Shown here: positions 10,432-57,213 of the stretch, one piece after another
How positions within the stretch are numbered: the first letter of the stretch is position 1
Layout: each line of letters begins with the position of its first letter
IMG/VR virus record: IMGVR_UViG_3300020171_000021
Coordinates: 2,972 to 66,971 of that record
Length of the DNA stretch: 64,000 nucleotides
Strand: one strand, 5' to 3'
Origin: a virus
Notes under the pieces: generated by a model
The model's database searches: none
Told to the model about the DNA's origin: nothing
What the model saw: only the letters and a program-made list of their open reading frames with translations
Made by a program: the position numbers and the translations under genes

Positions 10432-10597
10432 TGGAGGAACTATATTATATGGATAATTCAATTGCACCTAGTGGTGTGAAAACATTTTTTAAACAGCATG
10501 AAGCGCAAAAAGCAGCAGTAGATGAACTTATTGCAGCTCATAAAAAAGAATTTAAAATTATTCTTGAAAGATGTATGAAAACGGATGAGTGAATTTA

Positions 10598-11383
10598 ATG
10601 AAATTTCAAAGTCCAAGTTCAGTTGGATTGTTTCACGATTGTCCAAACGCTTATCGGTTGCATTATATTGACCGATATGAATCTTTATCAATGGATGATA
10701 CCGCCTTAAGAATGGGAAGAAGTGTTCACTCAATCTGTGAAAACTTTTATAAGGATTTAGACCTTAACAGTCTAGAACCTGAAAGGCATTTTGTTGAACA
10801 TCTTAAAAATGTAGCTTTTGCATATTGGGATAGAAGTATTGATGCTAAAAAGCGTGAAGCAATGGATGTTGCATTGAGAGGTTGGGTGCATGTTGAATTA
10901 ACAAGATTCATAAAGTATAGAACTATGAACATACTTGATAGATTCAAACCAATTGCTGTTGAAGAAGATTTAAGGTCTCCGTTGTTAGGCCTTCACTGCA
11001 TAGTAGATAAACGTGGTATTGGAGCAGATGGCAGTAAATATGCTTGGGATTACAAAACAAATTCTTATTTGCCATCTAAGAAGGCATTTGAAGGCGATAT
11101 GAAAGCTTTAAAACTGAACTTTAAAGTTCAGGCAGCCATAAACGCATTAATATTAAAACAAGTTGGAACACCAATCGACAAGTTTTATTTCCAATTTGTA
11201 AGATTCCCTGATAAACTACTTGAAATTCCGTTGACTCCTGCCTTATTTAAAGAGGCACAAGCTGCAATTGATGCGGTACTAACTGCAACTGAATACCCAA
11301 AAAATAAAAAACATTGTCACTTGTGTAATTATAAGGTGTATTGTGAAGCAGAGTCGCAGTCAATCTATTGCTGCAGCCCGTAG
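10598..11383 (+). CDS. Cas4/RecB-like PD-(D/E)xK nuclease with Fe-S cysteines
   Basis: N-terminal CP, GRSVH, VD...DYK and C-terminal CxxCxxxxxC. Confidence 0.85.
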   Translation: MKFQSPSSVGLFHDCPNAYRLHYIDRYESLSMDDTALRMGRSVHSICENFYKDLDLNSLEPERHFVEHLKNVAFAYWDRSIDAKKREAMDVALRGWVHVELTRFIKYRTMNILDRFKPIAVEEDLRSPLLGLHCIVDKRGIGADGSKYAWDYKTNSYLPSKKAFEGDMKALKLNFKVQAAINALILKQVGTPIDKFYFQFVRFPDKLLEIPLTPALFKEAQAAIDAVLTATEYPKNKKHCHLCNYKVYCEAESQSIYCCSP

Positions 11384-11424
11384 ACTTTATAAATATAAAA
11401 GCAGTTAAGTAACTAGAGGACAAA

Positions 11425-11745
11425 ATGAAAATAAACGGATTAATTATAGAATCATTTGTTGACTATCCAAATAGTTTTCTTGCAGATTTTGCCACAGATA
11501 TAGAAATCCGAAGAGAATTAAATGAATTGGATACACCATCACTTAAAAGATTAAGTGGATTGTTTGCACTTGATAGTCATGCGTTACGTTTTGCAAAAGT
11601 TGTTGGAATACATCCAGTAACCGGGCTTCCGTGGGATTTAACACCTAACGGAATAGACTGTGAACGCTATGACCAGTTAAAGGAACGAAATACAACCATT
11701 ATATTAAAAATAAAAGAAATTCTTGAACAGAGGACAGAAACATGA
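11425..11745 (+). CDS. Hypothetical protein
   Basis: TATA TTTATAAA and GAGGACA leader upstream. Confidence 0.65.
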   Translation: MKINGLIIESFVDYPNSFLADFATDIEIRRELNELDTPSLKRLSGLFALDSHALRFAKVVGIHPVTGLPWDLTPNGIDCERYDQLKERNTTIILKIKEILEQRTET

Positions 11746-12620
11746 AATCAATAACTACAATACTCACCCTTAGTGAGATGTTAAGAAAAATCGCCTGCGG
11801 CGGGCTGGTAAACAGTGCCGTCATCACAATTAGTGACGGAAAAATGCATGCGGAGGGATTAGGAATAGAGACTAGCGAAAGTAAAGGCGCAGACGGAACA
11901 TTAATCTGGGCAGTAACCTATCCACTAGTATCTGTTGAAGAGCCAGGAGAAATTACTGTCGCGGACATAAAAGACCTACTTTCAAAGTTGGGAGCGTTTG
12001 AAAAAGATGACCAGGTAGCCATGTTCACAGATGGCATAACCAAACTGATAATAAACAGAGAATCTCCAAAGCGGGTTTTAACTTATGATATGGTTGACAA
12101 GAAGTATATCAAAACCCAGCATGTTGGGACAAAGGTACAGCTCGGCAATCCAATCCTATTAACAAGAGCTGATGGCACGCAGAAGAAGATTGAATTCCAG
12201 GGGCATGTAAAGCTAAATTCAGTTACACTCAAAGAATTGAGTAAAGCAGTGGGCATAATAAACCCAACAGATATACCCTTGCAGATAACAGCAGATAAAT
12301 TCTATTCGCTATTGAAGGGACAGAATGCATCATTGATGCCTGAACTAAAATACGACGAGATATCCGGCGCAGCAGTTTCGAAATACACAGAAGAGATAAC
12401 AAATATCTTCAATCTAGGATTTGGAAATGCTACAGTAGATATTGGTAACAATGCACCAGTACATATCAGATATGATGCACCAGGCCAGATAGCAGAATAC
12501 ATGCTGTTAAACGCGGGTGCAATGAAAAAGAAAACTCCAGCAGCGGCAACTCCAACAACGACACCAACAACGGCTCCGGCTGCAACTACGACAACGGCTC
12601 CAACTGCACCTATAGTGTAA
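11742..12620 (+). CDS. Divergent PCNA-like sliding clamp with Pro/Thr/Ala tail
   Basis: About 255-aa two-domain alpha/beta pattern ending GNNAPVHIRY...EYMLL, as in PCNA. RFC-S, RFC-L and PolB occur in the same window. Confidence 0.65.
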   Translation: MKSITTILTLSEMLRKIACGGLVNSAVITISDGKMHAEGLGIETSESKGADGTLIWAVTYPLVSVEEPGEITVADIKDLLSKLGAFEKDDQVAMFTDGITKLIINRESPKRVLTYDMVDKKYIKTQHVGTKVQLGNPILLTRADGTQKKIEFQGHVKLNSVTLKELSKAVGIINPTDIPLQITADKFYSLLKGQNASLMPELKYDEISGAAVSKYTEEITNIFNLGFGNATVDIGNNAPVHIRYDAPGQIAEYMLLNAGAMKKKTPAAATPTTTPTTAPAATTTTAPTAPIV

Positions 12621-12654
12621 AGTAAGAGGATAATCCTCTTATCTTTCTATTTTT

Positions 12655-13062
12655 ATGACTAAATATCATTTTATACGTGCAGAACAAAAAATAGAAGGAA
12701 ACATTCCTTTTCTATATCTTATCGGAAGAGAACTTGATTCATTAAAGAAGCGCACGTTTAAAGTACATGGATTTAGAACATATTTTTATGCTCTGGAAGA
12801 AGAGAATCTTCCAAAAAGTTCTGGAATCATAGACATTATTCCGGGGTTCATATCAATCTTCGGCGATAAATGCAAGAAAGTTATTGTTGCTTCCACAAAT
12901 GACATTAATCAAATTAATAAGTTTCTGTCAAAACATTTTGAAGCAGATGTTGGTAGAAACTATGTACGACGCTTTTTAATAGACACTGGAATAAAGAGTT
13001 ATTTTACAGTTCCGGAACAAACAGACAATGATATATATTATACACAAATAACAGGAGAATGA
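12655..13062 (+). CDS. Family B DNA polymerase N-terminal domain (split gene)
   Basis: YLIGR...FRTYFY...FEADV...RRFLIDTGI matches the archaeal PolB N-terminal domain. ORF 20404 begins at ExoI and lacks this domain. Confidence 0.8.
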   Translation: MTKYHFIRAEQKIEGNIPFLYLIGRELDSLKKRTFKVHGFRTYFYALEEENLPKSSGIIDIIPGFISIFGDKCKKVIVASTNDINQINKFLSKHFEADVGRNYVRRFLIDTGIKSYFTVPEQTDNDIYYTQITGE

Positions 13063-13063
13063 T

Positions 13064-13354
13064 ATGCTATTTTCAACAAATTATATTGAAATTTTATTCA
13101 TTTTAGCAAATGCCGCGTTCCTTGGAGGAACATTAATGTTGGCCAGGAGAGTTTTTAAAAATCGTGGCTCTATAAAAGATTATGACCCAACTGGTTCATT
13201 AATAAACTTTATAGGAATGACCATATCTGGGATTGCTTTTTATTTATCTGGGTTAGGCACAACTGTTCTATTAATTTTACCCACATGGGCATTTTGGGGT
13301 ATGGCGTTTGTGTTTTCATACAAACACCACAGATACAACCTATGGAAACCATAG
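13064..13354 (+). CDS. Small 3-TM membrane protein (PQ-loop/SemiSWEET-like size)
   Basis: Three hydrophobic helices. Confidence 0.5.
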   Translation: MLFSTNYIEILFILANAAFLGGTLMLARRVFKNRGSIKDYDPTGSLINFIGMTISGIAFYLSGLGTTVLLILPTWAFWGMAFVFSYKHHRYNLWKP

Positions 13355-13406
13355 TATTAAATACTTTTAGAACAAATACTGACTTAATATATCTGGAGGA
13401 TGTAAA

Positions 13407-13766
13407 ATGAAAATTTCAAAAGATTTTGAATTTGCGGCAGCACATAAATTAAATTTACCATACGATAGCCCTTGCGAAAGATTACACGGACACAACTATA
13501 AACTCAGTGTAACATTAGTGGGCGAACTTAACAAAGACGGAATGATTATGGACTTTAAAGAATTAAAGTCTATTGTTACTCAAGAAGTTATCTCCATGCT
13601 TGACCATCAGGATTTAACAGGGTTTTTCATTATAAACCACCAACCGGTTAATGCAACAGCAGAAATCATGAGTAAATGGATTTATGAACGTCTTATTTAC
13701 AGACTACCAGAACTTCATAAAGTTCGGCTCTGGGAAACCACAGATAGTTCGGCGGAATATCCATGA
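13407..13766 (+). CDS. queD: 6-carboxytetrahydropterin synthase
   Basis: FAAAH, CERLHGHNY, MDF, LDH, TAE and LWET motifs. Confidence 0.95.
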   Translation: MKISKDFEFAAAHKLNLPYDSPCERLHGHNYKLSVTLVGELNKDGMIMDFKELKSIVTQEVISMLDHQDLTGFFIINHQPVNATAEIMSKWIYERLIYRLPELHKVRLWETTDSSAEYP

Positions 13767-13954
13767 GAAGTATATTTGCACTTGTGGTGGTATTTATTAT
13801 GGTATTTATTGCATTATTACCACCAGTTGGCATAGTAAGACTTGACTACTTTATAGAATCAATCTTATTTGCAGAAGCTGCTTGGTTTGCTGTCATATTT
13901 GTATTCAATAATATTTATGGGGGGCAGGAGGAACTATGTCAAACTACCATATAA
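13763..13954 (+). CDS. Small membrane protein
   Basis: Two hydrophobic segments; ATGA overlap with queD. Confidence 0.55.
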   Translation: MRSIFALVVVFIMVFIALLPPVGIVRLDYFIESILFAEAAWFAVIFVFNNIYGGQEELCQTTI

Positions 13955-14154
13955 CAATGAAATTAATAATCCTTGGACTGTTTGTATTAGGCAGCCCGTT
14001 ATTAATACTGTTTCAAGCAGCATTAATATTTGCACCAATTGGCTTTTGGCAATTAATAACCTTTACTATGATTGCACTAATGGTGTATATACCATTAGTG
14101 ATAATCTTCTGGTGTATCTTCTGGCTGATTATAGAAGTCTTAGGGATAAAGTGA
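13936..14154 (+). CDS. Small membrane protein
   Basis: Two hydrophobic segments; GGAGG RBS. Confidence 0.55.
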   Translation: MSNYHITMKLIILGLFVLGSPLLILFQAALIFAPIGFWQLITFTMIALMVYIPLVIIFWCIFWLIIEVLGIK

Positions 14155-14158
14155 AATT

Positions 14159-14824
14159 ATGGGAATAATGGAAATTTTTGAGTCTATACAAGGTGAAGGA
14201 AAGTATATTGGTGTTCCTTCAATCTTTATCAGATTTGCAGGATGTAATCTGCGATGCCCATGGTGTGATACAAAATATTCATGGAAAGAAAAAGGTGAAT
14301 ATACCACAACATCTGCTATTGAATTTATCAAATCAAAACCAAAATTTAAACATATCGTTTTCACTGGTGGAGAACCATTATTATATCAATATGATATTCT
14401 CGAAATAATTCGAGAAATAATGGCTAGAGACTTGGTAATAACAATAGAAACCAATGGAACAATTATTCCTAGATTAGACCTATACGGTTTTATGAAATAT
14501 ATTGGACTATGGAGCGTTTCGCCAAAACTCTTTATGGGTGCTGATATGAACTATGCTGCTATCAGATGGTTTAACCAACAGCAGGGCGTTCAGTGGAAAT
14601 TTGTGGTTGATGGATTACTGGATATTGACCAGATACTTGATATGAAGGAACAGGCAATAATAACACCTGTAGAACATATTATAGTTCAACCAAACGGTAT
14701 GGTTCCAGATTATCAAAAAGCCTGTCAAAACTTAGCGGAATATGTAATTGACCACGGATTAACAGAACTTCGTGTATTGCCCCAATTCCACAAGATTTGT
14801 TGGAGTAATAAAAGAGGTGTGTAA
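14159..14824 (+). CDS. queE: 7-carboxy-7-deazaguanine synthase (radical SAM)
   Basis: EIFESIQGEG, CNLRCPWCDT, TGGEP, IETNG, SVSPK and PQFHK. Confidence 0.95.
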   Translation: MGIMEIFESIQGEGKYIGVPSIFIRFAGCNLRCPWCDTKYSWKEKGEYTTTSAIEFIKSKPKFKHIVFTGGEPLLYQYDILEIIREIMARDLVITIETNGTIIPRLDLYGFMKYIGLWSVSPKLFMGADMNYAAIRWFNQQQGVQWKFVVDGLLDIDQILDMKEQAIITPVEHIIVQPNGMVPDYQKACQNLAEYVIDHGLTELRVLPQFHKICWSNKRGV

Positions 14825-15390
14825 TGGAAAAAAGTTATAATGACGCAGTAGCAGAACATTGTGTGAGAAAACTCTTACGTTATATCGGCGAAAATCCAGA
14901 AAGAGAAGGATTAATTGAAACACCAGAACGTGTTGTAAGAATGTATAAGGAAATATTTGCCGGATATATAACACCGTGCCCAAATATGAAAGCGTTTACA
15001 TCAAAAAGTAAAAGCATGGTGGTAAAATCTGGGATACTATCATTTTCACACTGTGAGCACCATGTTGTGCCAATAAAAATGTATGTTGATTTTGCTTACA
15101 TTCCAAACGGTAAGGTAGTAGGTATTTCAAAAATTATCAGGCTCATAAGATGGTGCAGTGCGCGCCTAACTTTACAGGAAGAACTTGTTGAAAATATCGC
15201 AGATGAATTTATGGAACAGGTTAATCCAGCAGGATGTATGGTTGTAATAAGAGGGCATCATTTTTGTGAGGAGATGCGAGGTGTCAGAACAGAAAACTGC
15301 ACCACGACATCAGCGATTCGTGGAGTTTTCGAGGAAGACCGTAACGTACAGAAAGAGGCGCTCAGCCTCATGAAAGAAGGTTGCAATTGA
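14824..15390 (+). CDS. folE: GTP cyclohydrolase I
   Basis: REGLIETPER, CEHH, GISK, LQE, HFC and MRG. Confidence 0.95.
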   Translation: MEKSYNDAVAEHCVRKLLRYIGENPEREGLIETPERVVRMYKEIFAGYITPCPNMKAFTSKSKSMVVKSGILSFSHCEHHVVPIKMYVDFAYIPNGKVVGISKIIRLIRWCSARLTLQEELVENIADEFMEQVNPAGCMVVIRGHHFCEEMRGVRTENCTTTSAIRGVFEEDRNVQKEALSLMKEGCN

Positions 15391-15402
15391 GGAGGTGAGA
15401 AG

Positions 15403-15630
15403 ATGCGAAGAGAATACACAGTATCCAATAAAACAGTAATCGAACAAGTTCTTGCCGGAAAGACAGACGGTATGAAATTGGACGATGCAGTAACCGCAGT
15501 AAAAGCAGTAAAAACACTCGACAGAAAGGATGTAGACGCGGGATGGAAGGCAGGTTTCAGAACTTATGCCACAGTCTACGACCAAGAAGGAATATTGATG
15601 GTAAAGCCCAAGACAGGAGTCCAGACTTAA
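15403..15630 (+). CDS. Small hypothetical protein
   Basis: Strong GAGGAGGTGA RBS; followed by an oligo-T terminator. Confidence 0.7.
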   Translation: MRREYTVSNKTVIEQVLAGKTDGMKLDDAVTAVKAVKTLDRKDVDAGWKAGFRTYATVYDQEGILMVKPKTGVQT

Positions 15631-15635
15631 ATCAT

Positions 15636-15650
15636 CTTTTTTTTCTTTTT
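15636..15650 (+). terminator. Archaeal oligo-T terminator
   Basis: CTTTTTTTTCTTTTT immediately after the stop codon. Confidence 0.6.
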
Positions 15651-15658
15651 AACAGCTT

Positions 15659-15724
15659 GGCGTGCTATGGTTAAATAACGTTGAAAGCTTGGCACCATCG
15701 TGGTTCAATTCCGCGAGCACGCCC
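15659..15724 (+). ncRNA. tRNA-like RNA lacking a D-arm
   Basis: 8-bp acceptor-like stem GGCGTGCT/AGCACGCC, T-arm CGTGG-TTCAATT-CCGCG, one central ATGGT/ACCAT stem. Confidence 0.55.
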
Positions 15725-15787
15725 TTAAAATTTTATTAGCCATAGATTTATAAACTTAAAAACTAATTACTTCTTGAAGGTTTAATT

Positions 15788-16147
15788 ATGGACAGACACA
15801 TATACATTCAAACTCAATTTATCGGTTATCACCGATGGGATGATGCACCAGAATGTGTTGCATTTTTACGCAATACGCACCGGCATGTTTTTCACGTAAA
15901 AGTAACCGTTCCTGTACGGCATAATGATAGAGCAATCGAATTCTTTATGATGAAACGTATGATTGATAATTTTATTTCACGTGAAATTATTTTTCAAACT
16001 CCACCAGATGGAAATATGGGTAGCTGCGAAATGATGGCAGAAAAAATTGCAACATATATTCATCAATATTATAAATTCAAATGGAACGAAATTGTTACTG
16101 TAGAAGTAAATGAAGATAATGAAAACGGGGCAATTATTAGAACTTAA
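15788..16147 (+). CDS. dpdL: QueD paralog, DpdL-like T-fold protein (putative CDG decarboxylase)
   Basis: LRNTHRHVF fits the LxxxHRHxF signature I recall for DpdL; also IEF, SCE and EDNENGA. Confidence 0.7.
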   Translation: MDRHIYIQTQFIGYHRWDDAPECVAFLRNTHRHVFHVKVTVPVRHNDRAIEFFMMKRMIDNFISREIIFQTPPDGNMGSCEMMAEKIATYIHQYYKFKWNEIVTVEVNEDNENGAIIRT

Positions 16148-16190
16148 TAATGACAGGTAGAAAAGGACAATGTAATTGTGAGGACAGAAA

Positions 16191-16649
16191 ATGGAACAAT
16201 CATCAAAACATAATCCAAGAATTTGGGTAGGAACAGAAGTCGAAGGCAGATTAAAAGGACTCAAAACTCTTTTTATCGCCTGCAGCATAGATAAAGAATT
16301 CTTTGGGCATCCGGTTGGAATAAACGCAATTTGTCAAAAGCACCACATACATCATCTTTATTTCAATGCTGGAAAAACAAATTTTAATGAATATACTCAC
16401 ATTGAATACTTTTTAAATCGTGGATATTTTGTAACCATAGAGACTACAGACCCACAAGACATTCCAACTGCATTAAGATTTAATATTCGTTTGCATATCA
16501 TCTGGAGGATAAGTGAAAATCATCTAGATTTAATAAAACATACAGATACAATAAAAATTGAAGGACGACATGGAATTTATTGCACTACACCAGAACAAAT
16601 GGTCAAAACAAAATGGACAGATTATAACGATGACCAAGTAATTTGTTAA
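16191..16649 (+). CDS. Hypothetical protein in deazaguanine cluster
   Basis: GAGGACAG leader; WVGTEVEG...GLKTLF N-terminus. Confidence 0.65.
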   Translation: MEQSSKHNPRIWVGTEVEGRLKGLKTLFIACSIDKEFFGHPVGINAICQKHHIHHLYFNAGKTNFNEYTHIEYFLNRGYFVTIETTDPQDIPTALRFNIRLHIIWRISENHLDLIKHTDTIKIEGRHGIYCTTPEQMVKTKWTDYNDDQVIC

Positions 16650-16650
16650 T

Positions 16651-17223
16651 ATGCCAGTTCCACCACAATATTGTTATCTTTATCCTTCTATTCCTATACT
16701 TTGTAATTGTGGATGCGGCACAATTATTTGGCATAAAGGGTCGCAATTTGCACCTGGGCATTACAACAAAGGAAAACAAATTCATACAACAGAACAAAAA
16801 CAAAAATGGGCGAAAATACGTAAAGGTCGTCCGAGTCCAACTAAAGGAAAAATTGGACATGTAGCCTGGAACAAAGGATTATTAGGATATCATGCAGCTG
16901 AGCATCATTATAATTGGCAAGGAGGAATATCTTTTCTTCCTTACTGTGAAAAATTTAATCGAAAACTGAAAGAAGCAATCAAAGAACGAGATAATCATAC
17001 TTGCCAGTTATGCGGTATAAAACAAAACAAAAGATTACAGGTTCATCATATTCATTATAAAAAAGAAGATTGTGAGCCTGATTTGATAGCACTTTGCGTA
17101 AGATGCAATCCTAAAGTAAATTTTAACAAAAACTATTATGAAAATTTATTCATGAACAAGTTGAATGATAGAGAATTATTGTTCTGGACAAAAAGATATA
17201 TAACTAATAAAAATAAACTATAA
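16651..17223 (+). CDS. HNH homing endonuclease with CxCGC and NUMOD3-like modules
   Basis: ERDNHTCQLCG...VHHIHY...LCVRCN. Confidence 0.85.
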   Translation: MPVPPQYCYLYPSIPILCNCGCGTIIWHKGSQFAPGHYNKGKQIHTTEQKQKWAKIRKGRPSPTKGKIGHVAWNKGLLGYHAAEHHYNWQGGISFLPYCEKFNRKLKEAIKERDNHTCQLCGIKQNKRLQVHHIHYKKEDCEPDLIALCVRCNPKVNFNKNYYENLFMNKLNDRELLFWTKRYITNKNKL

Positions 17224-17234
17224 TAGAGGACAAA

Positions 17235-18332
17235 ATGACATTAATTTATTTGCCAATCGAAAAATATTCGGAAAGATATACAACTCAATTGCACTCGTGG
17301 ATAATTGCAGAATTACAAAAACATAATGTTGATTATATAACGGTAGAAGGCGAACAATTAACTGACCGCATTGATGACGGACAAGTATTGGACGGATGCG
17401 GTAGGCCACATTATGCGCTAACACAAATGGCGCAGATTATGAGAATGATGCGACGCGACGAAATAAAATCTGGCGATAAGATTTTTAGCATGGATGTGTG
17501 GACGCACGGACTTGAAGCAATTCCTTATGCTGCAACGGTGCAAAAGAAAAATATTGATATGTACCACTTTAATTGTGCTGGGTCGTTTGAAAAGAATGAT
17601 TTTATAAATCTGACCGGGATGACACCGTGGGCGCATTATCAAGAAAAAGCTTGGTTTGCAGCTTGCAAGAAAGTCTTCTTTGCAGCTGATACATTAAGGC
17701 AAATGGCATTCCAAGAAGATATGTTTGATGACCGTAATGACAAAGCAGTGCTGACAGGGTTAGCATTTAATTCAACGGATGTCTATAATACCATTCCTAA
17801 AGAAGACCATCGTGATTTGGACGAAAAAGAAAACATCTGTGTTTTTCCTCATAGATGGGACAATGAAAAAAGACCGGAAAGATTTTTAGAAGTAGCTAAA
17901 GAAGTTAAAAAAGAATATCCAGACGCGCGATTTGTAATAACTACTGGTAGAAAAGAATTTACAGGAACGGCACCGATTGAAGAAGCATTACAACTTCAAA
18001 AGAAAGGTATTGTTGAAATCATGACAAATTTACCCAAAGTTGAATATTACAAATTACTGGCCAAATCTAAGGTAATTTTTAGTTCTGCTTTGCAGGACAC
18101 CGTTGGAAATTGTCTCCTTGAAGCGATAACGCATGGTTGCACTCCAGTTGCTACGGATGAAGTATCATATCATGAATATTTACCAGATAATTTTTTATAT
18201 CAAGATAAAAACTTAAACCAAGCAGCAGATATGGTTACAGAATATCTTGACCATCCAGTGGACTGTTTTGAATTTATTCAGAAATATGACCATAGTATCG
18301 AAAACATGCTTAAAGAAATGGAGTTGATTTAA
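17235..18332 (+). CDS. GT-B (GT4-like) glycosyltransferase inside the deazaguanine cluster
   Basis: FPHRWDNEKRP and QDTVGNCLLEA...GCTPV nucleotide-sugar-binding motif. Confidence 0.85.
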   Translation: MTLIYLPIEKYSERYTTQLHSWIIAELQKHNVDYITVEGEQLTDRIDDGQVLDGCGRPHYALTQMAQIMRMMRRDEIKSGDKIFSMDVWTHGLEAIPYAATVQKKNIDMYHFNCAGSFEKNDFINLTGMTPWAHYQEKAWFAACKKVFFAADTLRQMAFQEDMFDDRNDKAVLTGLAFNSTDVYNTIPKEDHRDLDEKENICVFPHRWDNEKRPERFLEVAKEVKKEYPDARFVITTGRKEFTGTAPIEEALQLQKKGIVEIMTNLPKVEYYKLLAKSKVIFSSALQDTVGNCLLEAITHGCTPVATDEVSYHEYLPDNFLYQDKNLNQAADMVTEYLDHPVDCFEFIQKYDHSIENMLKEMELI

Positions 18333-18847
18333 TGCGAATTAAAACAGCAAATCTTATCCTGGAACTGTATGAATCAGAACTTAAAGATGCACCTTGTTCA
18401 AAAGTGCATCATTTAAATGTTCGTGGCGGACTAATGCGACACTTACTTCATGTTGGAATAGAGGCAATAGAACTCGACCCAATGAATGAAACTTTAACTG
18501 CATTAGCATTTATACATGATATTGGAAAGGCCAGGACATATAAGATTTCAAAGCATGTGGTTGCAGGGGTTATCGAAGATAAAATCGAATATGTTGAACC
18601 CGCAGTTGACCACTTAATAAATACCATCGCAATGATAGAAGAAGTCCATGAATATACTGAACATCATTTAACTCAGGAAGAACTTCACGCGCTTCAATAT
18701 CATCATGGAGGCTTTAGTCCATTTGCAATTGCAAATAAATCTCCGCACGGTACAGTTTTAACTGAACTTGCTATAAAATTGCATTACTGTGATATCCTTG
18801 CGTCGTTAAGAGAAACCAACGGTTATTACGAACCTAAACATATATAA
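18332..18847 (+). CDS. HD-domain phosphohydrolase
   Basis: HH...GGLMRH...HDIGK...HHG...D. Confidence 0.88.
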   Translation: MRIKTANLILELYESELKDAPCSKVHHLNVRGGLMRHLLHVGIEAIELDPMNETLTALAFIHDIGKARTYKISKHVVAGVIEDKIEYVEPAVDHLINTIAMIEEVHEYTEHHLTQEELHALQYHHGGFSPFAIANKSPHGTVLTELAIKLHYCDILASLRETNGYYEPKHI

Positions 18848-18883
18848 ACCCTAAAATCAATTAAGATTCAGAGGACAGTAACA

Positions 18884-20263
18884 ATGAATCAAGAAGAAAA
18901 AGGTGATGCAAAATTTTTGCCCGCATCCACTACAACTTGTGCAGGAACATTCGGAAGTCATCCTGATATGCAATATATACCCGCCATGCTTGGGGCGGTC
19001 GAAAATGAGATTTTAAAAAGTAAGTATGTTCCTTCTCAGCTTGGTCAAAAGAATGGAATCTATGAACAAACACGCTTTATACCTGCTACATATATTAGGT
19101 GGGCAAGTGACACTTATGCCAATTCAAAATTCATTCCTGCGGATGTTTTGACCTCAAGAACAAACCAGGTTGAAGACAAAGGCTTCTCGGTAACCTGGTG
19201 GCAAAAAGATTCAATGTTCCATTACGACAGCATGCTTGTAAGTGCATTTTATGGAATAAAAATTCCCAATTACAGAGAAAAATATAATATTCCGAGAAAA
19301 GGATTTACATTAATCGGTGACTCTGGAGGATTTCAAGTAGCTAATGTTGAAGGAGCAACAATGAATCCTGCAAATTTGGCTAGATGGTATAACGAAAACG
19401 TAGACAAGGGATTTATATTGGATACACCAATTGTCAAATACGACCCACATCATAAAAAGTCTATGCCATTTGATTTTGAAACGGCGCTAAATAGAACTTA
19501 TAGTGATACTGAAACTATGATGAAAATTACAGACGTTCCTCTTTATGGCATAATGCATGGACATAATAAGGAGCAACTAAATGCCTGGTGGAAGAAGATG
19601 AGTGACTTTCATTTCGACGCCTGGTGTGGCGGTGCTAAACCTGCATCAGACCCAATGCTTCAAGCACTTATGTGCATGCAACTAAAAGAGTTTGACATCA
19701 AGAGAGTTCACATACTGGGAGTTTCTGGATTTAGTGTGGTTCCAGTTCTCGCATACGCATCGAAATATTTTGATTTTCTAAGTTACGACTCTGGTTCATA
19801 TGGCGAAGGAGCCATGTACCGCGCCTACCGGTTTCCGCAAAATCCACAAGCAAAAATATATTTTGGACGTGACAATAAAAATCATCTTAAAACATTACCA
19901 TGTGACTGCGAAGTATGCAGATGGGCAGAACCAGAAATGCTTTACAAAGAAGATTCATTAGCTGGAGCATTGTTATCATTACATAACCTGATAATTTATA
20001 TCCGATATAATCAGTTTATGAAAAGTATTGCAAAGGATGAAGAATACTTCAGACAATACCTCCAAGGAAATTTTGAGCCAAGTGATTGTGGAGAAAAAGA
20101 AGGACGCAAAGGTATGAAGCCAAAAGTTCTTGAAGCAATTGACTTCATCGAGTACACGGCCACAAATGGATTAGATGCAGGATATCAAAAGTACAAAAAA
20201 TATTTTGAAACTGAAACTGTAGCTCCAGTGTTTGCAGAAGAACGTGGTTCATTGTTTGATTAA
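18884..20263 (+). CDS. dpdA: TGT-superfamily transglycosylase (DpdA-like)
   Basis: GDSGGFQ, ILD, MHG, HILGVS, YDSGS and the Zn site CDCEVC...HN. Confidence 0.8.
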   Translation: MNQEEKGDAKFLPASTTTCAGTFGSHPDMQYIPAMLGAVENEILKSKYVPSQLGQKNGIYEQTRFIPATYIRWASDTYANSKFIPADVLTSRTNQVEDKGFSVTWWQKDSMFHYDSMLVSAFYGIKIPNYREKYNIPRKGFTLIGDSGGFQVANVEGATMNPANLARWYNENVDKGFILDTPIVKYDPHHKKSMPFDFETALNRTYSDTETMMKITDVPLYGIMHGHNKEQLNAWWKKMSDFHFDAWCGGAKPASDPMLQALMCMQLKEFDIKRVHILGVSGFSVVPVLAYASKYFDFLSYDSGSYGEGAMYRAYRFPQNPQAKIYFGRDNKNHLKTLPCDCEVCRWAEPEMLYKEDSLAGALLSLHNLIIYIRYNQFMKSIAKDEEYFRQYLQGNFEPSDCGEKEGRKGMKPKVLEAIDFIEYTATNGLDAGYQKYKKYFETETVAPVFAEERGSLFD

Positions 20264-20403
20264 CTCGGTAGTAATATGAAAGCAAAATCACAAGCTGAAA
20301 TAGACATTGTGGATAAAATAAATGCAATTACCGATACAATAACAGGATTGGAAAACGGTATTAAAGTATTGCAACAAGAATTAATAATAGTGAGAAATAC
20401 ACA

Positions 20404-22437
20404 ATGAAAGAATTGCGCTTAGGATTTATAGACATAGAGGTAGAGAGTCCTTTAGAATTTCCTAAGCCAGAATTTGCTAAATTTCCAATAACTGGCATTA
20501 CTCATTATGACAGTTTTTTGGATAAGTATTTCACTTTAACATATCAAGCAGGGCAAAAAGTTGAATTTATTCAGCGTGCGCCAAACTGGGATGTCTACCA
20601 TTTTGACGACCCGTTGCAACTTGGAATAAGATATGTGAAATTAATGCGATTTTTAGACCCTGATGTAATTATTGGATTCTACAGTAGAAAGTTCGACTTA
20701 CCTTATCTATTCAAGTGGTTTGAAAATAATAAACTTCCAGTTGGGTCGTTCTCAAATCTGGGCAATGCCTATTACAGCAGAGAAAAACCTGTTATTGAAG
20801 GTCGCCATACATTTGACTTACATGATGCTGATAGAACTTTTAAGAAAAGAACGTCTTACAAATTAAAAGATATTGCCATCGAAGAAAATCTTCCTGTGAA
20901 AAAAATGGAGATTGATTGCAACCCGGGCAGAGTTCTTGAGCTGCGTGGCATGGCAATAATGGAAGAATACAATAAGGTAGACGTTGAAACCACTGTTGAA
21001 ATGGATAAAAAACTTCAGCACTTAAAACGATTTGTTGCCAGGTGGAGACTTGCAGGTCTTAATGACATAGATAAAGCAATGTCTAATTCTGTGGTTATTG
21101 ATAATGTAATGCTGCGAGATGCAAAAAACAATAATATAGTTCTTCCATCAAAACCTGATAAAGTTTCAGATAATGATGAAGACGACGATATAACTGGCGG
21201 GCTTGTTCTTCAACCAATAATCGGAATACATGACTGGGTAGACGTATTTGATATGACAAGATTCTATCCTATGCTAATTCTTCTACTTTGCATGAGTCCT
21301 GAAAATATCAGTGAATTTGGAACTTTTGTTTCGTCAAACGGAACTCGATTTATAAATAATCCAAATGCTTTCTTGCCACGTATTGTTGCAAAACTCTTTT
21401 TAGAACGAGATAAAGTTCAAGCAGAGAAAAAGAAATTATCTCCTGATGACCCATTATATTGGAAGTTATCAGAAGAAGATGAGAATATTAAATTCCTAGT
21501 AAATTCTATTTTTGGCGTTACTGGATTGAAAACATTCAGATTATATGACCCAAGAATAACAGATAGTATAACCACATCTGGTCAAACTATGATTCGAGAG
21601 GTTAAAACATATAACGAATCAAAAAACCTTGTTGTAACTTACGGTGACACAGATAGTAATCATACAAAAATGAATGTGTCAAACATTGATGACGCATTAA
21701 AAACCGGAGAAATTTTAGCAACTGAACTTAATACCATGTTTCCGATTTGGGCAAAAAAACATTTTAATGTTGACAATGGAGAGACATTAAAAATTGTATT
21801 TGAAAAAATATATCGCAGAATAGTTTATATTCCAAAAAAGGATGGCGATGGTGCAAAGAAACGATATTTTGCTAGATTGGTTTATGAGAAAGGTAAAATA
21901 ACAGACCAAATATATGTTAGAGGTCTGGATTATAGACGGTCTGACGCATCAAAAGTAACCAAGGATATGCAATGGGAAATAATGAAAATAATTTTATATA
22001 CCGAGAATATGCAAGAAATGAAAAATAAAATAATTGCATATCTGAGACCAATTATAGATAATTTTGAAAATTTACCATTATCTGATATCGGAATGCCTCA
22101 ATCTTTTACAAAACCATTAACATCATATGGTAGAGAAGGAAAAGGCGGCCAGAAAATCGGTCTTGACCCAGAAATCAGAGCTGGATTATATTGTAATAAT
22201 TATTTGAACACAAATTATGGTGAGGGGTCAACGGTAAAATTATTGCACATAACAAAAATAGAAGGATATCCGCAGACGGACGTTATTGTATTTGATGACG
22301 AGAAAACACTTCCAAAAATTGAAGTAAATTATTCTAAAATGATTGATTCCACAATAAAAAAGAAAATTGAAAGAATTATTTCAGTTGCTGGGGTTTCATG
22401 GAATGAAGTTATAGGGACGCCGACACTATTTGACTAA
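20404..22437 (+). CDS. polB: Family B DNA polymerase, exonuclease and polymerase domains
   Basis: DIE (ExoI), FDLPY (ExoII), YNKVD (ExoIII), DMTRFYP (motif A), KFLVNSIFG (B), YGDTDS (C) and KKRY. Confidence 0.95.
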   Translation: MKELRLGFIDIEVESPLEFPKPEFAKFPITGITHYDSFLDKYFTLTYQAGQKVEFIQRAPNWDVYHFDDPLQLGIRYVKLMRFLDPDVIIGFYSRKFDLPYLFKWFENNKLPVGSFSNLGNAYYSREKPVIEGRHTFDLHDADRTFKKRTSYKLKDIAIEENLPVKKMEIDCNPGRVLELRGMAIMEEYNKVDVETTVEMDKKLQHLKRFVARWRLAGLNDIDKAMSNSVVIDNVMLRDAKNNNIVLPSKPDKVSDNDEDDDITGGLVLQPIIGIHDWVDVFDMTRFYPMLILLLCMSPENISEFGTFVSSNGTRFINNPNAFLPRIVAKLFLERDKVQAEKKKLSPDDPLYWKLSEEDENIKFLVNSIFGVTGLKTFRLYDPRITDSITTSGQTMIREVKTYNESKNLVVTYGDTDSNHTKMNVSNIDDALKTGEILATELNTMFPIWAKKHFNVDNGETLKIVFEKIYRRIVYIPKKDGDGAKKRYFARLVYEKGKITDQIYVRGLDYRRSDASKVTKDMQWEIMKIILYTENMQEMKNKIIAYLRPIIDNFENLPLSDIGMPQSFTKPLTSYGREGKGGQKIGLDPEIRAGLYCNNYLNTNYGEGSTVKLLHITKIEGYPQTDVIVFDDEKTLPKIEVNYSKMIDSTIKKKIERIISVAGVSWNEVIGTPTLFD

Positions 22438-22460
22438 AAGTTTATATAAAGAGAAAACAG
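22438..22460 (+). promoter_or_regulatory. Archaeal TATA promoter, 23-bp exact repeat copy 1
   Basis: AAGTTTATATAAAGAGAAAACAG, identical at 24007-24029. Confidence 0.75.
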
Positions 22461-22467
22461 TTTAAGT

Positions 22468-22962
22468 ATGAGGACAGTAACAATGAACATAGCTATAGAC
22501 CTTGATGGTACACTTACAAAAGAAGATGTCGGTAGTCTACCGCTCAATATGTTTGATGACCGAGATTATATTGATTTATTCTTAGAAAATTGTACTCCAG
22601 CAAACGGAATAGAAGTATTGAACGAGTACGGAATAATTCCATTAATCATTACTGGAAGAGATGAGAAGCGTCGTGAATTAACCACTGCATGGTTGAATAA
22701 ACATAATATTCGTTTCAAATCGCTTATTATGGCGCCACATAATTATTATCTTGAAAACGGCCAAGTAAATTTTACCTGGGAGAAATATTCTCAATTAAAA
22801 CTTAACCAACATAGACAACATGATATAAGTATGGCATTTGATGACAAATTATGTTCGGTTGAAATATTGAACCAGCATGGTATCTTATCATTCTTAGTTC
22901 AAAATAATCTGCGTGAAATTATTGAAAATGCTATGAATAATTACGGAGGACAATATGTTTGA
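22468..22962 (+). CDS. HAD-family phosphatase (PNK 3'-phosphatase/nucleotidase-like)
   Basis: IDLDGTL, ITGR, K and FDD motifs. Real start is probably ATG 22483. Confidence 0.85.
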   Translation: MRTVTMNIAIDLDGTLTKEDVGSLPLNMFDDRDYIDLFLENCTPANGIEVLNEYGIIPLIITGRDEKRRELTTAWLNKHNIRFKSLIMAPHNYYLENGQVNFTWEKYSQLKLNQHRQHDISMAFDDKLCSVEILNQHGILSFLVQNNLREIIENAMNNYGGQYV

Positions 22963-23533
22963 ACATTTTAAAAATAAAATCGTGACGATTGAAGGAGCAG
23001 ATGGAACTGGGAAGGATACCATCTGTAATCTTCTGCAAGAAAAACTTCCAAATAGTGTTATAGTAAGGTTTCCAAATAGAGCCAACCCATCAGGACAAGT
23101 TATAGATGCTATTTTGAAAAAACAAAAACCTATGGAGCCGTTGTCATTTCAGGCACTGCAAGTCATAAATAAAATCGAAACTTTAAAACATATCGAGCGC
23201 AGTTCTGTAATTTGTAATCCTGATTATTTTATCTTCTGCAGATATTATCAGTCGGCATATGTGTACGGAATGAATGATGGAATCCCGTTAGAATATTCGC
23301 AGGACATTAATTCAGTTCTTCCAGAGAGTTGGCTAACCATCATTCTGCACGGTAAAAATTACGGAAAGCACGAAGAGTATTATGAACAGGATGATGTCCA
23401 GAATAAGATTTCTCAAAGTTATCTGGATTTAGCAAAAAAGTTTGGGTGGACAAAAATAATAAATCATCATACACCAGACGAAATTGTTTCAATGATACTT
23501 GATGCAATAAGTAGGAGACAAGAGGAATCATGA
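22955..23533 (+). CDS. Thymidylate-kinase-family dNMP kinase
   Basis: IEGADGTGKDT and RFP. The usual DRY motif reads CRY here. Confidence 0.85.
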   Translation: MFEHFKNKIVTIEGADGTGKDTICNLLQEKLPNSVIVRFPNRANPSGQVIDAILKKQKPMEPLSFQALQVINKIETLKHIERSSVICNPDYFIFCRYYQSAYVYGMNDGIPLEYSQDINSVLPESWLTIILHGKNYGKHEEYYEQDDVQNKISQSYLDLAKKFGWTKIINHHTPDEIVSMILDAISRRQEES

Positions 23534-23868
23534 TTGACATTAAACGATTGATAACAGATTGCGCAGAAAATGCCAACAAACATGGTTGGTTTATTTTATG
23601 GGATATCAAAAAAATAATTCGCCAAGATGAAAAAATAAAAGTATTATCTATCGGCGATGCTCTTTGCTTATGTCATTCAGAATTAAGTGAAGCTTTAGAA
23701 GCACATAGAGATGATGATATTGAGCAGTTTTCAGAAGAAATTGCAGATGAGTTTATTCGACTTTTTCACTTATGTGGTGACTTAAACATAGATATTGAAA
23801 AATATATTGTTTTAAAAATGTCAAAAAACAAATTAAGACCGATTAATCACGGTAGAATAAATTATTAA
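23530..23868 (+). CDS. MazG-like nucleotide pyrophosphohydrolase
   Basis: HSELSEALEA...EEIADEFIR. Confidence 0.88.
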   Translation: MIDIKRLITDCAENANKHGWFILWDIKKIIRQDEKIKVLSIGDALCLCHSELSEALEAHRDDDIEQFSEEIADEFIRLFHLCGDLNIDIEKYIVLKMSKNKLRPINHGRINY

Positions 23869-55118: not shown

Positions 55119-55769
55119 ATGAAGGACAGTTATCCGGTTATTCCTACATTATGTCAGTGTGGTTGTAACGAAGTTATTTGGCACAGAGGACAGAAATATT
55201 TACATGGACACAATGGTAGATTTCGTGTGTCTTGGAGTAAAGGATTAAATAAATATAATCATCCTTCTATATTAAAAATGTCATTAACTTTAAAGAAAAA
55301 CGGAATAGTACCACCATCAAGAAAAGGAAAACCATCGCCAAGAAAAGGAAAATATTTAACTGAGGAACATAAAAAAATTATGAAAGAAGTAAATATTGGT
55401 AATAAAAATGCTCTTGGCCATACTCCAGCAAGAAATTTCAAAGAGAAAAATGGGAACTGGCAAGGTGGGTTGTCATTTCTTCCATATTGTGAAAAATGGA
55501 CGAAGGAATTAAGAGAAGCAGTAAGAGAACGAGACGGATATATTTGTCAACTATGTGGTAAAAAACAAAAAGAATTAACTGGACGATTTAAGAAATTATC
55601 AGTTCACCATGTGCACTATGATAAAGAAAACTGTTATCCAGACTTGATTATATTGTGTAATTTTGATAATAGCAACGTCAATTTCAATCGCAAACATTAT
55701 GAGGAATTATTTATGAATAAGTTGAATGATAGAGGATTGTTATTCTGGACTAAGGAGAAACTATTATGA
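55119..55769 (+). CDS. HNH homing endonuclease, paralog of 16651
   Basis: CQCGC; ERDGYICQLCG...VHHVHY; shared end LFMNKLNDRxLLFWTK. Confidence 0.85.
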   Translation: MKDSYPVIPTLCQCGCNEVIWHRGQKYLHGHNGRFRVSWSKGLNKYNHPSILKMSLTLKKNGIVPPSRKGKPSPRKGKYLTEEHKKIMKEVNIGNKNALGHTPARNFKEKNGNWQGGLSFLPYCEKWTKELREAVRERDGYICQLCGKKQKELTGRFKKLSVHHVHYDKENCYPDLIILCNFDNSNVNFNRKHYEELFMNKLNDRGLLFWTKEKLL

Positions 55770-56944: not shown

Positions 56945-56967
56945 AATAATAGGTTTGGAGGAAAATA

Positions 56968-57213
56968 ATGTCAAAAGAAGATAACGCAAGAGCACATCAA
57001 ATCGTGGCTCGTTGGATTCGATTACTTGATGAAGAAAGAGAACGTCTAAAAAATATTTTTGATGAAGAAAAACCCAGAATAGACGAACTTATTGGGCTAG
57101 TTGGAGAAGTTCGTGCAATTGATATATGCCGTCAGGCAGCACTTGATAATGGATTCGACACATATAAACATAAAGTAGATTGGTTTTATGTTGATGCTCC
57201 GGCGTGGAAATAA
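56968..57213 (+). CDS. Hypothetical protein
   Basis: GGAGG RBS. Confidence 0.65.
   Translation: MSKEDNARAHQIVARWIRLLDEERERLKNIFDEEKPRIDELIGLVGEVRAIDICRQAALDNGFDTYKHKVDWFYVDAPAWK

Follow-up and report, generated by a model that had tools for sequence, protein, structure and literature searches.

Organisation of the gene cluster

The window, a stretch of 64,000 nucleotides of viral DNA (IMG/VR record IMGVR_UViG_3300020171_000021, positions 2,972 to 66,971), carries on its + strand a set of deazaguanine biosynthesis genes interleaved with a DNA polymerase. The cluster is headed by an open reading frame for a 135-aa protein with no family match (12655..13062), found at the same position in the closest relative (locus L097, 4e-55) and in locus L090 (6e-34), and by a small hydrophobic protein of 96 aa, recognised from its translation (13064..13354) and kept in L097 (2e-50). 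These precede the CPH4 synthase QueD (13407..13766; PF01242 8.5e-33, TIGR03367 2.6e-25, CERLHGH motif), the radical SAM CDG synthase QueE (14159..14824; phrog_2076 5.8e-47, TIGR03963 3.9e-32), GTP cyclohydrolase I, FolE (14824..15390; PF01227 1.4e-56; NF006826 200 bits, cut-off 162), a 75-aa protein with no family match that is also kept in L097 (15403..15630; 4e-43), and a second T-fold protein, the QueD paralog DpdL, a proposed CDG decarboxylase (15788..16147; LxxxHRHxF motif, phrog_17812 6.6e-20).

Further along lie orf16191, encoding a conserved 152-aa protein (16191..16649), an HNH homing-type endonuclease gene that appears to be a mobile insertion (16651..17223; PF01844 9e-5, PHROG HNH families), a GT4 (GT-B) glycosyltransferase (GT) gene (17235..18332; PF00534 46.5 bits, cut-off 26.4), an HD-domain gene (18332..18847; PF01966 0.0019, below cut-off; phrog_5889 2.9e-8) and a gene for a DpdA-like transglycosylase of TGT fold with a disordered N-terminal tail (18884..20263; weak Pfam match, PF01702 0.002). 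The family B DNA polymerase (PolB) follows (20404..22437; PF00136 3e-31, phrog_262 8.5e-90; 50% identical to the PolB of L090), and after it come a weakly matched HAD phosphatase of the PNKP-phosphatase type (22468..22962; PF25109 0.001, phrog_415 2.3e-13), a kinase of the thymidylate-kinase family (22955..23533; PF02223 5.1e-17) and a MazG-like NTP pyrophosphohydrolase (23530..23868; phrog_3301 1.9e-19, PF12643 6.4e-4). The queD, queE, folE, second T-fold, GT-B, HD, TGT-fold, polB, HAD, kinase and MazG genes listed in a first-pass annotation of this DNA were all recovered at these positions and on this strand.

That annotation did not mention orf16191, the HNH endonuclease or the small hydrophobic open reading frames within the que cluster. 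Fourteen homologs of orf16191 were found, none of them with a Pfam family; they adjoin the GT gene in loci L024–L037 and are present in 12 of 80 metagenomic loci anchored on the GT, making orf16191 an occasional partner of that gene. The HNH homolog in L097 sits on the opposite side of the GT.

The host is probably archaeal, as had been supposed: the virus has RFC and Hef genes, and one relative was assigned to a Nitrosotalea MAG by binning. Two tRNAs, tRNA-Ala and tRNA-Pro, are also encoded.

A QueC-less pathway with a DpdL

Neither QueC nor a true QueF turned up anywhere in the 66,971-base record, estimated to be only 60% complete, which extends to the entire record what had been noted for the window; the sole QueF match is weak and falls inside FolE. 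DpdL is told from QueD by the motif LxxxHRHxF in place of CxxxHGH. The second T-fold protein carries FLRNTHRHVF at residues 26-35, fitting the DpdL motif, and this segment aligns with the DpdL of phiST and ACP17, whereas three QueD sequences have C..LHG[HY] instead. In tblastn comparisons the protein is 34% identical to phiST DpdL over 95% of its length (3e-9) and 32% identical to ACP17 DpdL over 97% (1e-9), and every DpdL block aligns between it and the reference DpdL. Its companions in the record are FolE, QueD, QueE and a DpdA. On motif and homology we assign it as a true DpdL, with CDG decarboxylation as its proposed activity. The earlier identification of a DpdL-like gene is borne out, and that of a CDG/7-deazaguanine-derived base system is supported, with gene content placing it in the QueC-less DpdL type.

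Conversion of CDG to 7-deazaguanine by DpdL is a published proposal, with the activity unproven in the accessible text of PMC10516641. The same text reports that reconstitution of dDG from the DpdL and DpdA of phiST or ACP17 failed, and allows for missing enzymes; in the work described there, the DpdL branch was never reconstituted.

When 80 loci were anchored on the TGT-fold gene, GT or DpdL occurred in 0 of the 24 with QueC versus 41 of the 56 without it. In the relative binned with the Nitrosotalea MAG, a virus with the same backbone, QueC occupies the exact slot held in the window by DpdL, orf16191 and GT, a natural module swap that marks the genes of the chemistry.

A TGT-fold enzyme, probably DpdA2-like

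The model of the transglycosylase (AF2 pLDDT 75) matches the TGT fold with a Foldseek probability of 1.0 and Z of 24-26. Members of the DpdA superfamily share this fold, a pair of catalytic Asp residues and a zinc site of the form CxCxxC...H; the window enzyme has the fold, D146 and D302, and the zinc site. Across 37 relatives D146, D180 and D302 are invariant and the zinc site (C340/C342/C345/H367) is nearly so.

The family profile resembles archaeosine transglycosylase (arcTGT, 3e-24): among solved structures archaeosine TGT scores highest (89 bits), and a Nitrosotalea arcTGT reaches 92 bits. Together with the two virus-encoded tRNAs, this would fit a tRNA-guanine transglycosylase acting on host or viral tRNA, a reading that we consider very improbable. 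Against the curated arcTGT model (TIGR00432) the protein scores 24.1 bits, the cut-off being 350 bits. A PUA or other C-terminal tRNA-binding domain was not found, Pfam giving PF01702 only, and the alignment to arcTGT stops at the end of the catalytic domain. In a quick tree, whose backbone is unresolved, the protein falls outside cellular arcTGT, two true arcTGTs forming a separate clade (99*, stem 1.47); the grouping with tRNA-acting arcTGT that the first-pass annotation had named as telling against a DNA role did not appear there. Moreover, more than 100 loci place the family inside a viral replication module together with PolB and DpdL, and the gene lies directly upstream of PolB in the window, a placement that DpdA shares in CAjan and phiST.

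Several established DpdA classes were tried and rejected. The bacterial DpdA model (NF041059) gave 22.3 bits, its curated cut-off being 200 bits. For DpdA1, the CAjan protein scored 23 bits against the family profile, and an iterated search from it returned 40 ORFs, 0 of them common to the family of the window enzyme. The phiST DpdA3 scored 8.5 bits with no meaningful BLASTP alignment, and an iterated search starting from it never reached this family. DpdA4 was set aside on two grounds, there being no PF20314 (DUF6610) match at E up to 0.01 and an E of 0.39 between the family profile and HVTV-1 DpdA4 (HVTV1_69). DpdA2 proteins came closest, with 64 bits for ACP17 and 63 bits for the VH7D type in profile comparisons, the pairwise score not being significant; all 93 viral-locus ORFs reached by an iterated search from ACP17 DpdA2 were also matched by the family profile. 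A placement among DpdA1-4 and TGT had been suggested: the enzyme stands outside arcTGT and is not DpdA1, DpdA3 or DpdA4, and it merges with DpdA2 in the iterated search, the tree backbone being unresolved. We infer a DpdA of a DpdA2-like radiation, family and context pointing to DNA rather than tRNA as its probable substrate. Pocket residues showed a weak trend between QueC-linked and DpdL-linked enzymes.

A glycosyltransferase conserved beside DpdL

The GT was modelled at an AF2 pLDDT of 93.7 as a two-Rossmann GT-B protein. Its nearest solved structures are BshA, MshA, GlgM and PglA (E about 1e-13), and it matches its ACP17 homolog in structure (TM 0.77/0.82) and sequence (7e-16). Residues R207, E211, K212, Q287 and E296 do not vary across the 33 family members compared; by analogy with other GT4 enzymes we take them to be donor-side. 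On the model the protein is confidently of GT4 fold, with sugar transfer as its putative activity. T4 glucosyl-hydroxymethylcytosine, made by DNA glucosyltransferases, offers the concept of a GT-B enzyme decorating a non-canonical viral DNA base, but on another base, and the window GT has no specific similarity to those enzymes: a DNA alpha-GT of a cyanophage was the sole match labelled as a DNA glycosyltransferase, and it ranked 38 among viral models (TM 0.57).

Gene neighbourhoods tie the family to DpdL. Among 50,697 phage records, 23 were GT-positive and 29 DpdL-positive, 18 of the 23 carrying both genes no more than about 3.1 kb apart; these 18 come from six or more lineages, the accompanying DpdA being DpdA2 or DpdA3. 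Of the 80 GT-anchored metagenome loci, 21 were well flanked (3 kb or more of sequence to either side), and these contained DpdL in 21/21, QueE in 21/21, FolE in 17/21 and DpdA in 20/21. DpdL was found in 29 of 31 GT lineages. The gap from GT to DpdA had a median of -6 bp and was at most 100 bp in 47 of 72 cases, and sugar-nucleotide enzymes adjoin the GT in some loci. Judged by gene order, the GT is a conserved member of the DpdL-type deazaguanine module, and it occurs with DpdA1, DpdA2 and DpdA3 partners, here in a probable archaeal virus. The possibility of a glycosylated base, raised in the first-pass annotation, gains from this conserved partnership with DpdL and DpdA. No published description of a DpdL-GT link was found.

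The FolE and PTPS-like T-fold enzymes could instead, with the GT, make a glycosylated pterin and no DNA base, FolE and PTPS-type enzymes being makers of pterins and a tetrahydrobiopterin glucosyltransferase (9v0l) appearing among the GT4 structural matches at rank 34. Yet QueE, whose reaction commits the flux to deazapurines, is as constant at the well-flanked loci as DpdL, DpdA is nearly so, and dozens of other GT4 enzymes match at least as closely as 9v0l; we give this reading only the slightest chance.

A more serious alternative is that the DNA holds plain, unsubstituted 7-deazaguanine, as in phiST, the GT acting on an intermediate, as a non-catalytic partner, or on protein. An unsubstituted 7-deazaguanine base offers no evident hydroxyl group to which a sugar could be O-linked. 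BshA and MshA, the closest GT4 enzymes of solved structure, use small-molecule substrates, a point against a sugar on DNA, and the window holds five other GT-like genes (55.7-63.6 kb), so glycosylation of other targets is within the repertoire of the virus. In addition, phiST makes dDG with full replacement of G and does so without this GT, according to the accessible text of PMC10516641. Against this alternative stand the confinement of the GT family to deazaguanine clusters, its unbroken association with DpdL at the well-flanked loci, its usual abutment on DpdA, its absence from all 24 loci with QueC, and the invariance of the presumed donor-side residues. On this evidence we regard it as possible but rather doubtful.

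Nucleotide-pool genes are not conserved members of the module

A test of co-occurrence with dpdL had also been suggested for the HD, kinase and MazG genes, and here the GT parts company with them. The 21 well-flanked loci contained one HD homolog and no HAD, Tmk or MazG homolog; all 80 GT-anchored loci contained one HD (marginal) and one MazG homolog, with no HAD or Tmk. In a set of 84 loci, homologs of HD, HAD, Tmk and MazG were absent, one marginal HAD match excepted. The HD gene is also absent from L097, and the HD protein is a window-specific insertion between GT and DpdA.

Z-genome phages use a nucleotide-pool system of DatZ, MazZ and PurZ, and, like the window, encode HD and MazG-like proteins near a polymerase. 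It had been suggested on such grounds that substitution might occur at the nucleotide level, instead of or alongside base exchange; in such a scheme the kinase would phosphorylate a deazaguanine nucleotide, HD and MazG would purge dGTP, and PolB would incorporate the analogue. The HD, HAD, kinase and MazG-like genes do flank PolB; phiST, with complete replacement of G, likewise has MazG-like and P-loop proteins beside DpdL, and 8 of the 31 related GT lineages include a type-I phosphoribosyltransferase. Nevertheless, the idea is without support because the pool genes are not conserved companions of the module (0-1/21) and HD is missing from the closest relative. Unlike Z-genome phages, the window has no dedicated nucleotide-synthesis analogue, and no phosphoribosyltransferase was found in the record; where present, such an enzyme could equally salvage guanine freed by base exchange, and an intact DpdA accompanies nearly every well-flanked GT locus. 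The kinase matches PDB TMPKs at about 1e-9, in keeping with its thymidylate-kinase family. Neither the HD nor the MazG-like protein has a sequence match to any solved HD/MazG structure in the PDB at E below 0.1, and therefore none to the Z-genome enzymes. The consulted text of PMC8651126 lists MazG and Tmk among the genes commonly carried by archaeal tailed viruses. We thus hold pre-replicative substitution to be improbable, and the Z-genome-like reading of the flanking genes, tempting but unsupported, has been removed; we propose that the HD, HAD, Tmk-like and MazG-like genes belong to the replication module, where they serve nucleotide metabolism in a general or accessory role, outside the modification pathway.

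Proposed pathway and relation to known systems

The reading that we prefer, and consider moderately probable, is a QueC-independent, DpdL-type 7-deazaguanine DNA-modification module, with the GT4 as a fixed member, in a tailed virus of archaea. FolE, QueD and QueE would take GTP to 7-carboxy-7-deazaguanine by the established pathway, and DpdL would convert this to 7-deazaguanine as published. After replication, the DpdA2-like enzyme would, by family and context, swap guanine in viral DNA for 7-deazaguanine. The GT4 would most likely, going by its conservation, glycosylate the deazapurine, either in DNA or as the free base, with a hypermodified purine as the predicted product. More tentatively, we suggest that the DNA of this virus and of many DpdL-GT-DpdA phages may hold a sugar-bearing 7-deazaguanine derivative, and that the GT may be the missing enzyme behind the failed reconstitution from DpdL and DpdA alone.

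The phiST dDG system comprises FolE, QueD, QueE, DpdL and DpdA3 in the accessible text of Cui, Hutinet et al. 2023 (PMC10516641). Like the window, it has FolE-QueD-QueE with DpdL and no QueC, a transglycosylase gene immediately preceding that of the replicative polymerase, and a MazG-like gene nearby; it differs in having DpdA3, which the window transglycosylase is not, in lacking the GT4 and orf16191, and in its Pol III alpha polymerase, whereas the window has PolB and a probably archaeal host. The cluster of the Acidovorax phage ACP17 (QueD, FolE, DpdA2, the GT-like ASD50404, DpdL and QueE) shares with the window DpdL, the same GT family and a DpdA2-type enzyme side by side, although ACP17 is a T4-like bacteriophage. 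Neither the GT of ACP17 nor its DNA base is reported in the main text of PMC10516641, as far as that text was available. The haloarchaeal HVTV-1 (DpdA4/preQ1) is, like the present virus, an archaeal tailed virus with que genes, RFC, PolB and Tmk in one replication module, but it has QueC, QueF and DpdA4 (DUF6610), none of which is in the window record. The DpdL-GT module appears to reach archaeal viruses with a DpdA other than the 'archaeal' DpdA4.

Viral 7-deazaguanine DNA modifications are already known, and the derivatives described in the literature available to us bear only small groups at C7; no paper was found on glycosylated purines in DNA as a class. From a GT fixed within the DpdL branch we predict a hypermodified purine not described so far. 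For PA5oct, the source consulted gives modified G as known from restriction digests only; this phage is one of the GT-bearing phages in culture, together with ACP17, BCSR5, BUDD, BUCT-ZZ01 and Phosso.

A QueC-less deazaguanine cluster upstream of the viral polymerase

Every gene that the first-pass annotation had named in the stretch 12655..23868 was recovered in place and on the + strand. The biosynthetic part of the cluster, headed by an ORF starting at 12655 (orf12655), comprises QueD (13407-13766; PF01242, 8.5e-33; motif CERLHGH), QueE (14159-14824; phrog_2076, 5.8e-47) and FolE (14824-15390; PF01227, 1.4e-56). Absent from the initial gene list were a conserved gene, orf16191 (16191-16649, +), which had 0 family matches and for which ESM Atlas gave nothing usable; an HNH endonuclease (16651-17223, +); and three small, strongly hydrophobic ORFs within the que cluster (13064-13354, 13763-13954 and 13936-14154), the first of which is kept in L097, the closest relative of the locus. 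The lack of queC and queF, originally noted for the window (bases 2972-66971), extends to the whole 66,971-base IMG/VR record (estimated 60% complete), which contained no QueC and a sole weak QueF match lying inside FolE. A type-I phosphoribosyltransferase was likewise not found in this ~60% complete record.

The second T-fold protein (15788-16147, +) carries FLRNTHRHVF, an exact instance of LxxxHRHxF, the published signature of the QueD paralog DpdL (PMC10516641). In tblastn comparisons it showed 34% identity to DpdL of phage phiST and 32% to that of phage ACP17, over 95-97% of its length. All DpdL-specific blocks in the alignment were common to these three proteins, and the three QueD sequences included retained C..LHG[HY]. 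On these sequence grounds, the protein is a member of the DpdL family, as had been suggested from the motif. The decarboxylase activity of DpdL is treated in the published account as a proposal, without proof in the literature (PMC10516641).

A virus-encoded DpdA-like transglycosylase

The TGT-fold protein (18884-20263, +; weak Pfam match) has 780 relatives at E ≤ 1e-3 among 1.84 billion representative proteins. Across an alignment of 37 relatives, D146 (in DSGGFQ), D180 and D302 were invariant and the zinc site CxCxxC...H nearly so. When pocket residues were compared for specificity determinants between QueC-linked and DpdL-linked enzymes, no more than a weak trend emerged, at residue 227. 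Its AF2 model combined a confident core with a disordered tail (residues 1-98), and the TGT fold was retrieved with a Foldseek probability of 1.0 and VIA Z scores of 24-26 (rmsd 3.1-3.8 Å, 288-315 residues). The TGT classes were not separable by structure: arcTGT, bacterial TGT and eukaryotic TGT shared the same Z range of 24-26, and the 50 matches listed did not include a bacterial DpdA.

The family profile matched P. horikoshii arcTGT at 89 bits versus 41 bits for bacterial DpdA, and two true arcTGTs from archaeal MAGs at 92 and 69 bits. Among viral subfamilies, it matched DpdA2 of ACP17 and ValKK3 at 64 and 63 bits, DpdA1 of CAjan at 23 bits and DpdA3 of phiST at 8.5 bits, with no match to DpdA4 of HVTV-1 (E 0.39). 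Pairwise BLASTP against the phiST DpdA3 and ACP17 proteins gave nothing informative. An iterated search from ACP17 DpdA2 collected 93 viral-locus ORFs, all of which (93/93) were also matched by the family profile; iterated searches from DpdA1 and DpdA3 did not converge on this family. A quick tree (85 rows; backbone not resolved) placed the window protein with two metagenome proteins (support 100) and, loosely, near the sequence from a virus-like contig of a Nitrosotalea MAG. It fell outside the separate clade made up of the two cellular arcTGTs (support 99), in keeping with the DNA-modification role proposed for it at the outset. Taken as sequence evidence, these comparisons point to a virus-encoded, DpdA-like enzyme, probably part of a broad DpdA2-like radiation, and the genomic context suggests DNA as its substrate. 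Although DpdA4 has been described as specific to archaeal viruses, the window enzyme is not of the DpdA4 type.

Against two curated models the protein scored far under the cut-off, arcTGT (24 bits versus a 350-bit cut-off) and bacterial DpdA (22 bits versus a 200-bit cut-off), and no PUA domain was found by Pfam. The tail (window 18884-19177) contains four [KRQ][FY][ILV]PA repeats (KFLPA, QYIPA, RFIPA and KFIPA) as well as KYVPS; one to several copies are kept in seven relatives, and the repeats may constitute a putative docking motif. On a number of related viral contigs the TGT-like gene is present as two or three tandem paralogs (L007:9371-12878, L008:9905-13412, L013:916-3325).

A glycosyltransferase is part of the DpdL/DpdA module

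The glycosyltransferase (GT; 17235-18332, +; PF00534, 46.5 bits versus a cut-off of 26.4) is predicted from its structural model (pLDDT 93.7, pTM 0.91) to be a GT4-type GT-B enzyme. The nearest solved structures were BshA, MshA, GlgM and PglA, and close viral matches were limited to an unnamed protein at TM 0.90 and, at TM 0.77/0.82, the ACP17 protein adjoining DpdL. Three independent samples place this GT in the DpdL/DpdA module.

Among 50,697 phage records, 23 matched the window GT and 29 the window DpdL, with both present in 18: BCSR5, BUCT-ZZ01, BUDD, X1, Phosso, ACP17 (two) and eleven PA5oct-like records, at a GT-DpdL spacing of ~20 bp to 3.1 kb. According to table DS1 of the 2023 paper, ACP17, BUDD and BCSR5 carry DpdA2 and PA5oct carries DpdA3 (PMC10516641). 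The remaining five GT matches, from the PhiXhv/Ep026 group, were weaker (~1e-7), with no DpdL detected. Eleven DpdL records were without GT, including five Cellulophaga phiST-like phages; in a DpdL tree, phiST sat on a long branch and was the sole confirmed GT-less sequence in the sample.

The second sample consisted of 80 TGT-anchored viral-contig loci, in which profile searches found GT in 30/80, DpdL in 27/80 and both in 16/80. QueC was present in 24/80 loci, and GT or DpdL occurred in 0/24 of these versus 41/56 of the QueC-less loci (GT and/or DpdL; Fisher p ~1.5e-10, relatedness not corrected for). In the third sample, of 80 GT-anchored metagenome loci, DpdL was found in 57/80, always on the same strand as GT and at a median gap of 624 bp. 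Where at least 3 kb flanked GT on both sides (n = 21), DpdL and QueE were each present in 21/21, FolE in 17/21, QueD in 15/21 and DpdA in 20/21 (17 of DpdA1 type, 3 of window type). Pooling both sets gave 31 GT lineages, of which 29 carried DpdL, 27 FolE and 26 QueD/QueE; 16 had a TGT of the window type and 15 a DpdA1-type enzyme. A same-strand DpdA lay downstream of GT in 72/84 loci at a median gap of -6 bp (≤100 bp in 47), exceptions being the window itself (519 bp, HD inserted) and L097 (600 bp, HNH inserted).

Further genes accompany GT in some of these loci. NDP-sugar enzymes adjoin it in L057 (epimerase/dehydratase), L051 (cytidylyltransferase-like) and L038 (PIG-L deacetylase). Several lineages have a second radical-SAM enzyme directly upstream of GT (L119:9108-9998, SPASM; L127:9036-10004; L038:6279-6995), with none in the window. 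Type-I phosphoribosyltransferases (PF00156) lie inside related deazaguanine clusters in 8/31 GT lineages (for instance L037:5073-5579, L057:15648-16136, L047:15775-16314 and L017:5136-5570) and could serve salvage of exchange-released guanine or deazapurine nucleotide synthesis.

An archaeal host and a QueC-bearing relative

The identification of the virus as archaeal held up. Among the window's genes are those for a clamp loader of archaeal type (RFC small subunit, 2.7e-64; RFC large subunit, 8.5e-42) and for a Hef/XPF-type nuclease. When 185,579 species genomes were scanned for the TGT-like gene, two relatives turned up, and both lie on contigs of archaeal MAGs, one assigned to Nitrosotalea sp. 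and the other to a Methanosarcinaceae archaeon. The Nitrosotalea contig, L090 (102.6 kb, 31% GC), shares with the window an ORF starting at 11742 (orf11742), orf12655, QueD, QueE (1e-79), FolE (1e-78), TGT (4e-71) and PolB (2e-150). Its gene order is QueD-QueE-FolE-QueC-TGT-methyltransferase-DUF6884-PolB, with QueC occupying the slot that holds orf15403-DpdL-orf16191-HNH-GT-HD in the window. PolB relatives were found in only 2/301 sampled genomes of this MAG's class, one being the MAG itself and the other a weak 32% match, so the thaumarchaeal assignment rests on one binned contig. An archaeal host is thus well supported and a thaumarchaeal one tentative.

L090 also carries a gene related to Gad1, an anti-defence protein against Gabija (1644-2540; PF25705, 1e-43), which is notable for an archaeal contig, and its PolB (10557-13458) is interrupted by a NUMOD/endonuclease-type ORF. 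DUF6884 (PF21818) adjoins the TGT-like gene in QueC-type relatives (L006:9524-9952, L090:10051-10554).

Nucleotide enzymes are not conserved with the module

PolB (20404-22437, +) is preceded by an HD protein (18332-18847, +; weak matches only, under cut-off) and followed by a PNKP-phosphatase-type HAD protein (22468-22962, +), a kinase of the thymidylate-kinase family (22955-23533, +; PF02223, 5e-17) and a MazG-like protein (23530-23868, +; phrog_3301, 1.9e-19). The first-pass annotation had read HD, MazG and kinase as a possible sign of Z-genome-like substitution at the nucleotide level, before replication. None of the 84 loci in the first locus sample had a homolog of the window's HD, Tmk-like or MazG-like protein, and HAD gave one marginal match there; in the 80 GT-anchored loci HD occurred once (8e-4), MazG once, and HAD and Tmk in none. 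In the 21 well-flanked GT loci, all of which have DpdL, HD was present in one and HAD, kinase and MazG in none. In L097, whose GT is 85% identical to that of the window, the order is orf12655, small membrane ORF, QueD, QueE, FolE, orf15403, DpdL, orf16191, GT, HNH, TGT, and HD is absent.

The best solved relatives of the kinase were eukaryotic and poxvirus thymidylate kinases (~1e-9); for the HD and MazG-like proteins, no solved structure matched significantly by sequence. HVTV-1 carries Tmk within its RFC/PolB module, and MazG, Tmk and other nucleotide enzymes have been listed among the genes that archaeal tailed viruses generally carry (Liu et al. 2021, PMC8651126). Pre-replicative substitution therefore found no comparative support in this analysis, and we consider it very improbable. 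On its side is phiST, where DpdL is accompanied by genes for a MazG-like and a P-loop protein (BLASTP of the window MazG-like protein against phiST gp039, E 0.012 only); because of these neighbours, a pool-sanitising role could still apply. An ATP-dependent RNA ligase lies at 9358-10431 (TIGR02306, 8.8e-51) and might form an RNA-repair pair with the PNKP-type HAD protein, rather than the latter having a nucleotide-pool role.

Proposed pathway

FolE, QueD and QueE would supply CDG by the established route, which DpdL would convert to 7-deazaguanine, as proposed in the literature. Family and context suggest that the DpdA-like enzyme would then swap guanine in viral DNA for 7-deazaguanine after replication. 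GT, to judge by its conservation, might place a sugar on the deazapurine, in DNA or as the free base, or be otherwise needed by the DpdL branch. In E. coli, the DpdL and DpdA proteins of phiST or of ACP17 did not yield dDG, and the authors allowed for missing enzymes (PMC10516641). PA5oct, which carries GT, resists cleavage at G-containing restriction sites, from which a modified G was deduced (PMC12191111). It may also be that GT does not glycosylate the deazapurine: 7-deazaguanine offers no obvious acceptor hydroxyl, phiST produces dDG without GT, and small molecules are the substrates of the nearest solved GT4 enzymes. Of the deazaguanine-derived, possibly glycosylated base envisaged initially, the QueC-less DpdL system is supported, and glycosylation is a suggestion drawn from GT conservation.

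Nothing relevant on a glycosylated deazaguanine, or tying a GT to DpdA or DpdL, emerged from the published literature searched; the main text of PMC10516641 has 0 mentions of a glycosyltransferase, 7/7 occurrences of 'glycosyl' being 'transglycosylase'. The chief new content of the window is its archaeal host, a non-DpdA4 DpdA and a natural swap of QueC versus a DpdL/GT module. Elsewhere in the window, a block at 55766-63555 contains a methyltransferase gene alongside five genes of GT4 or GT-like type, and it has no relationship to the family of the DpdL-linked GT.
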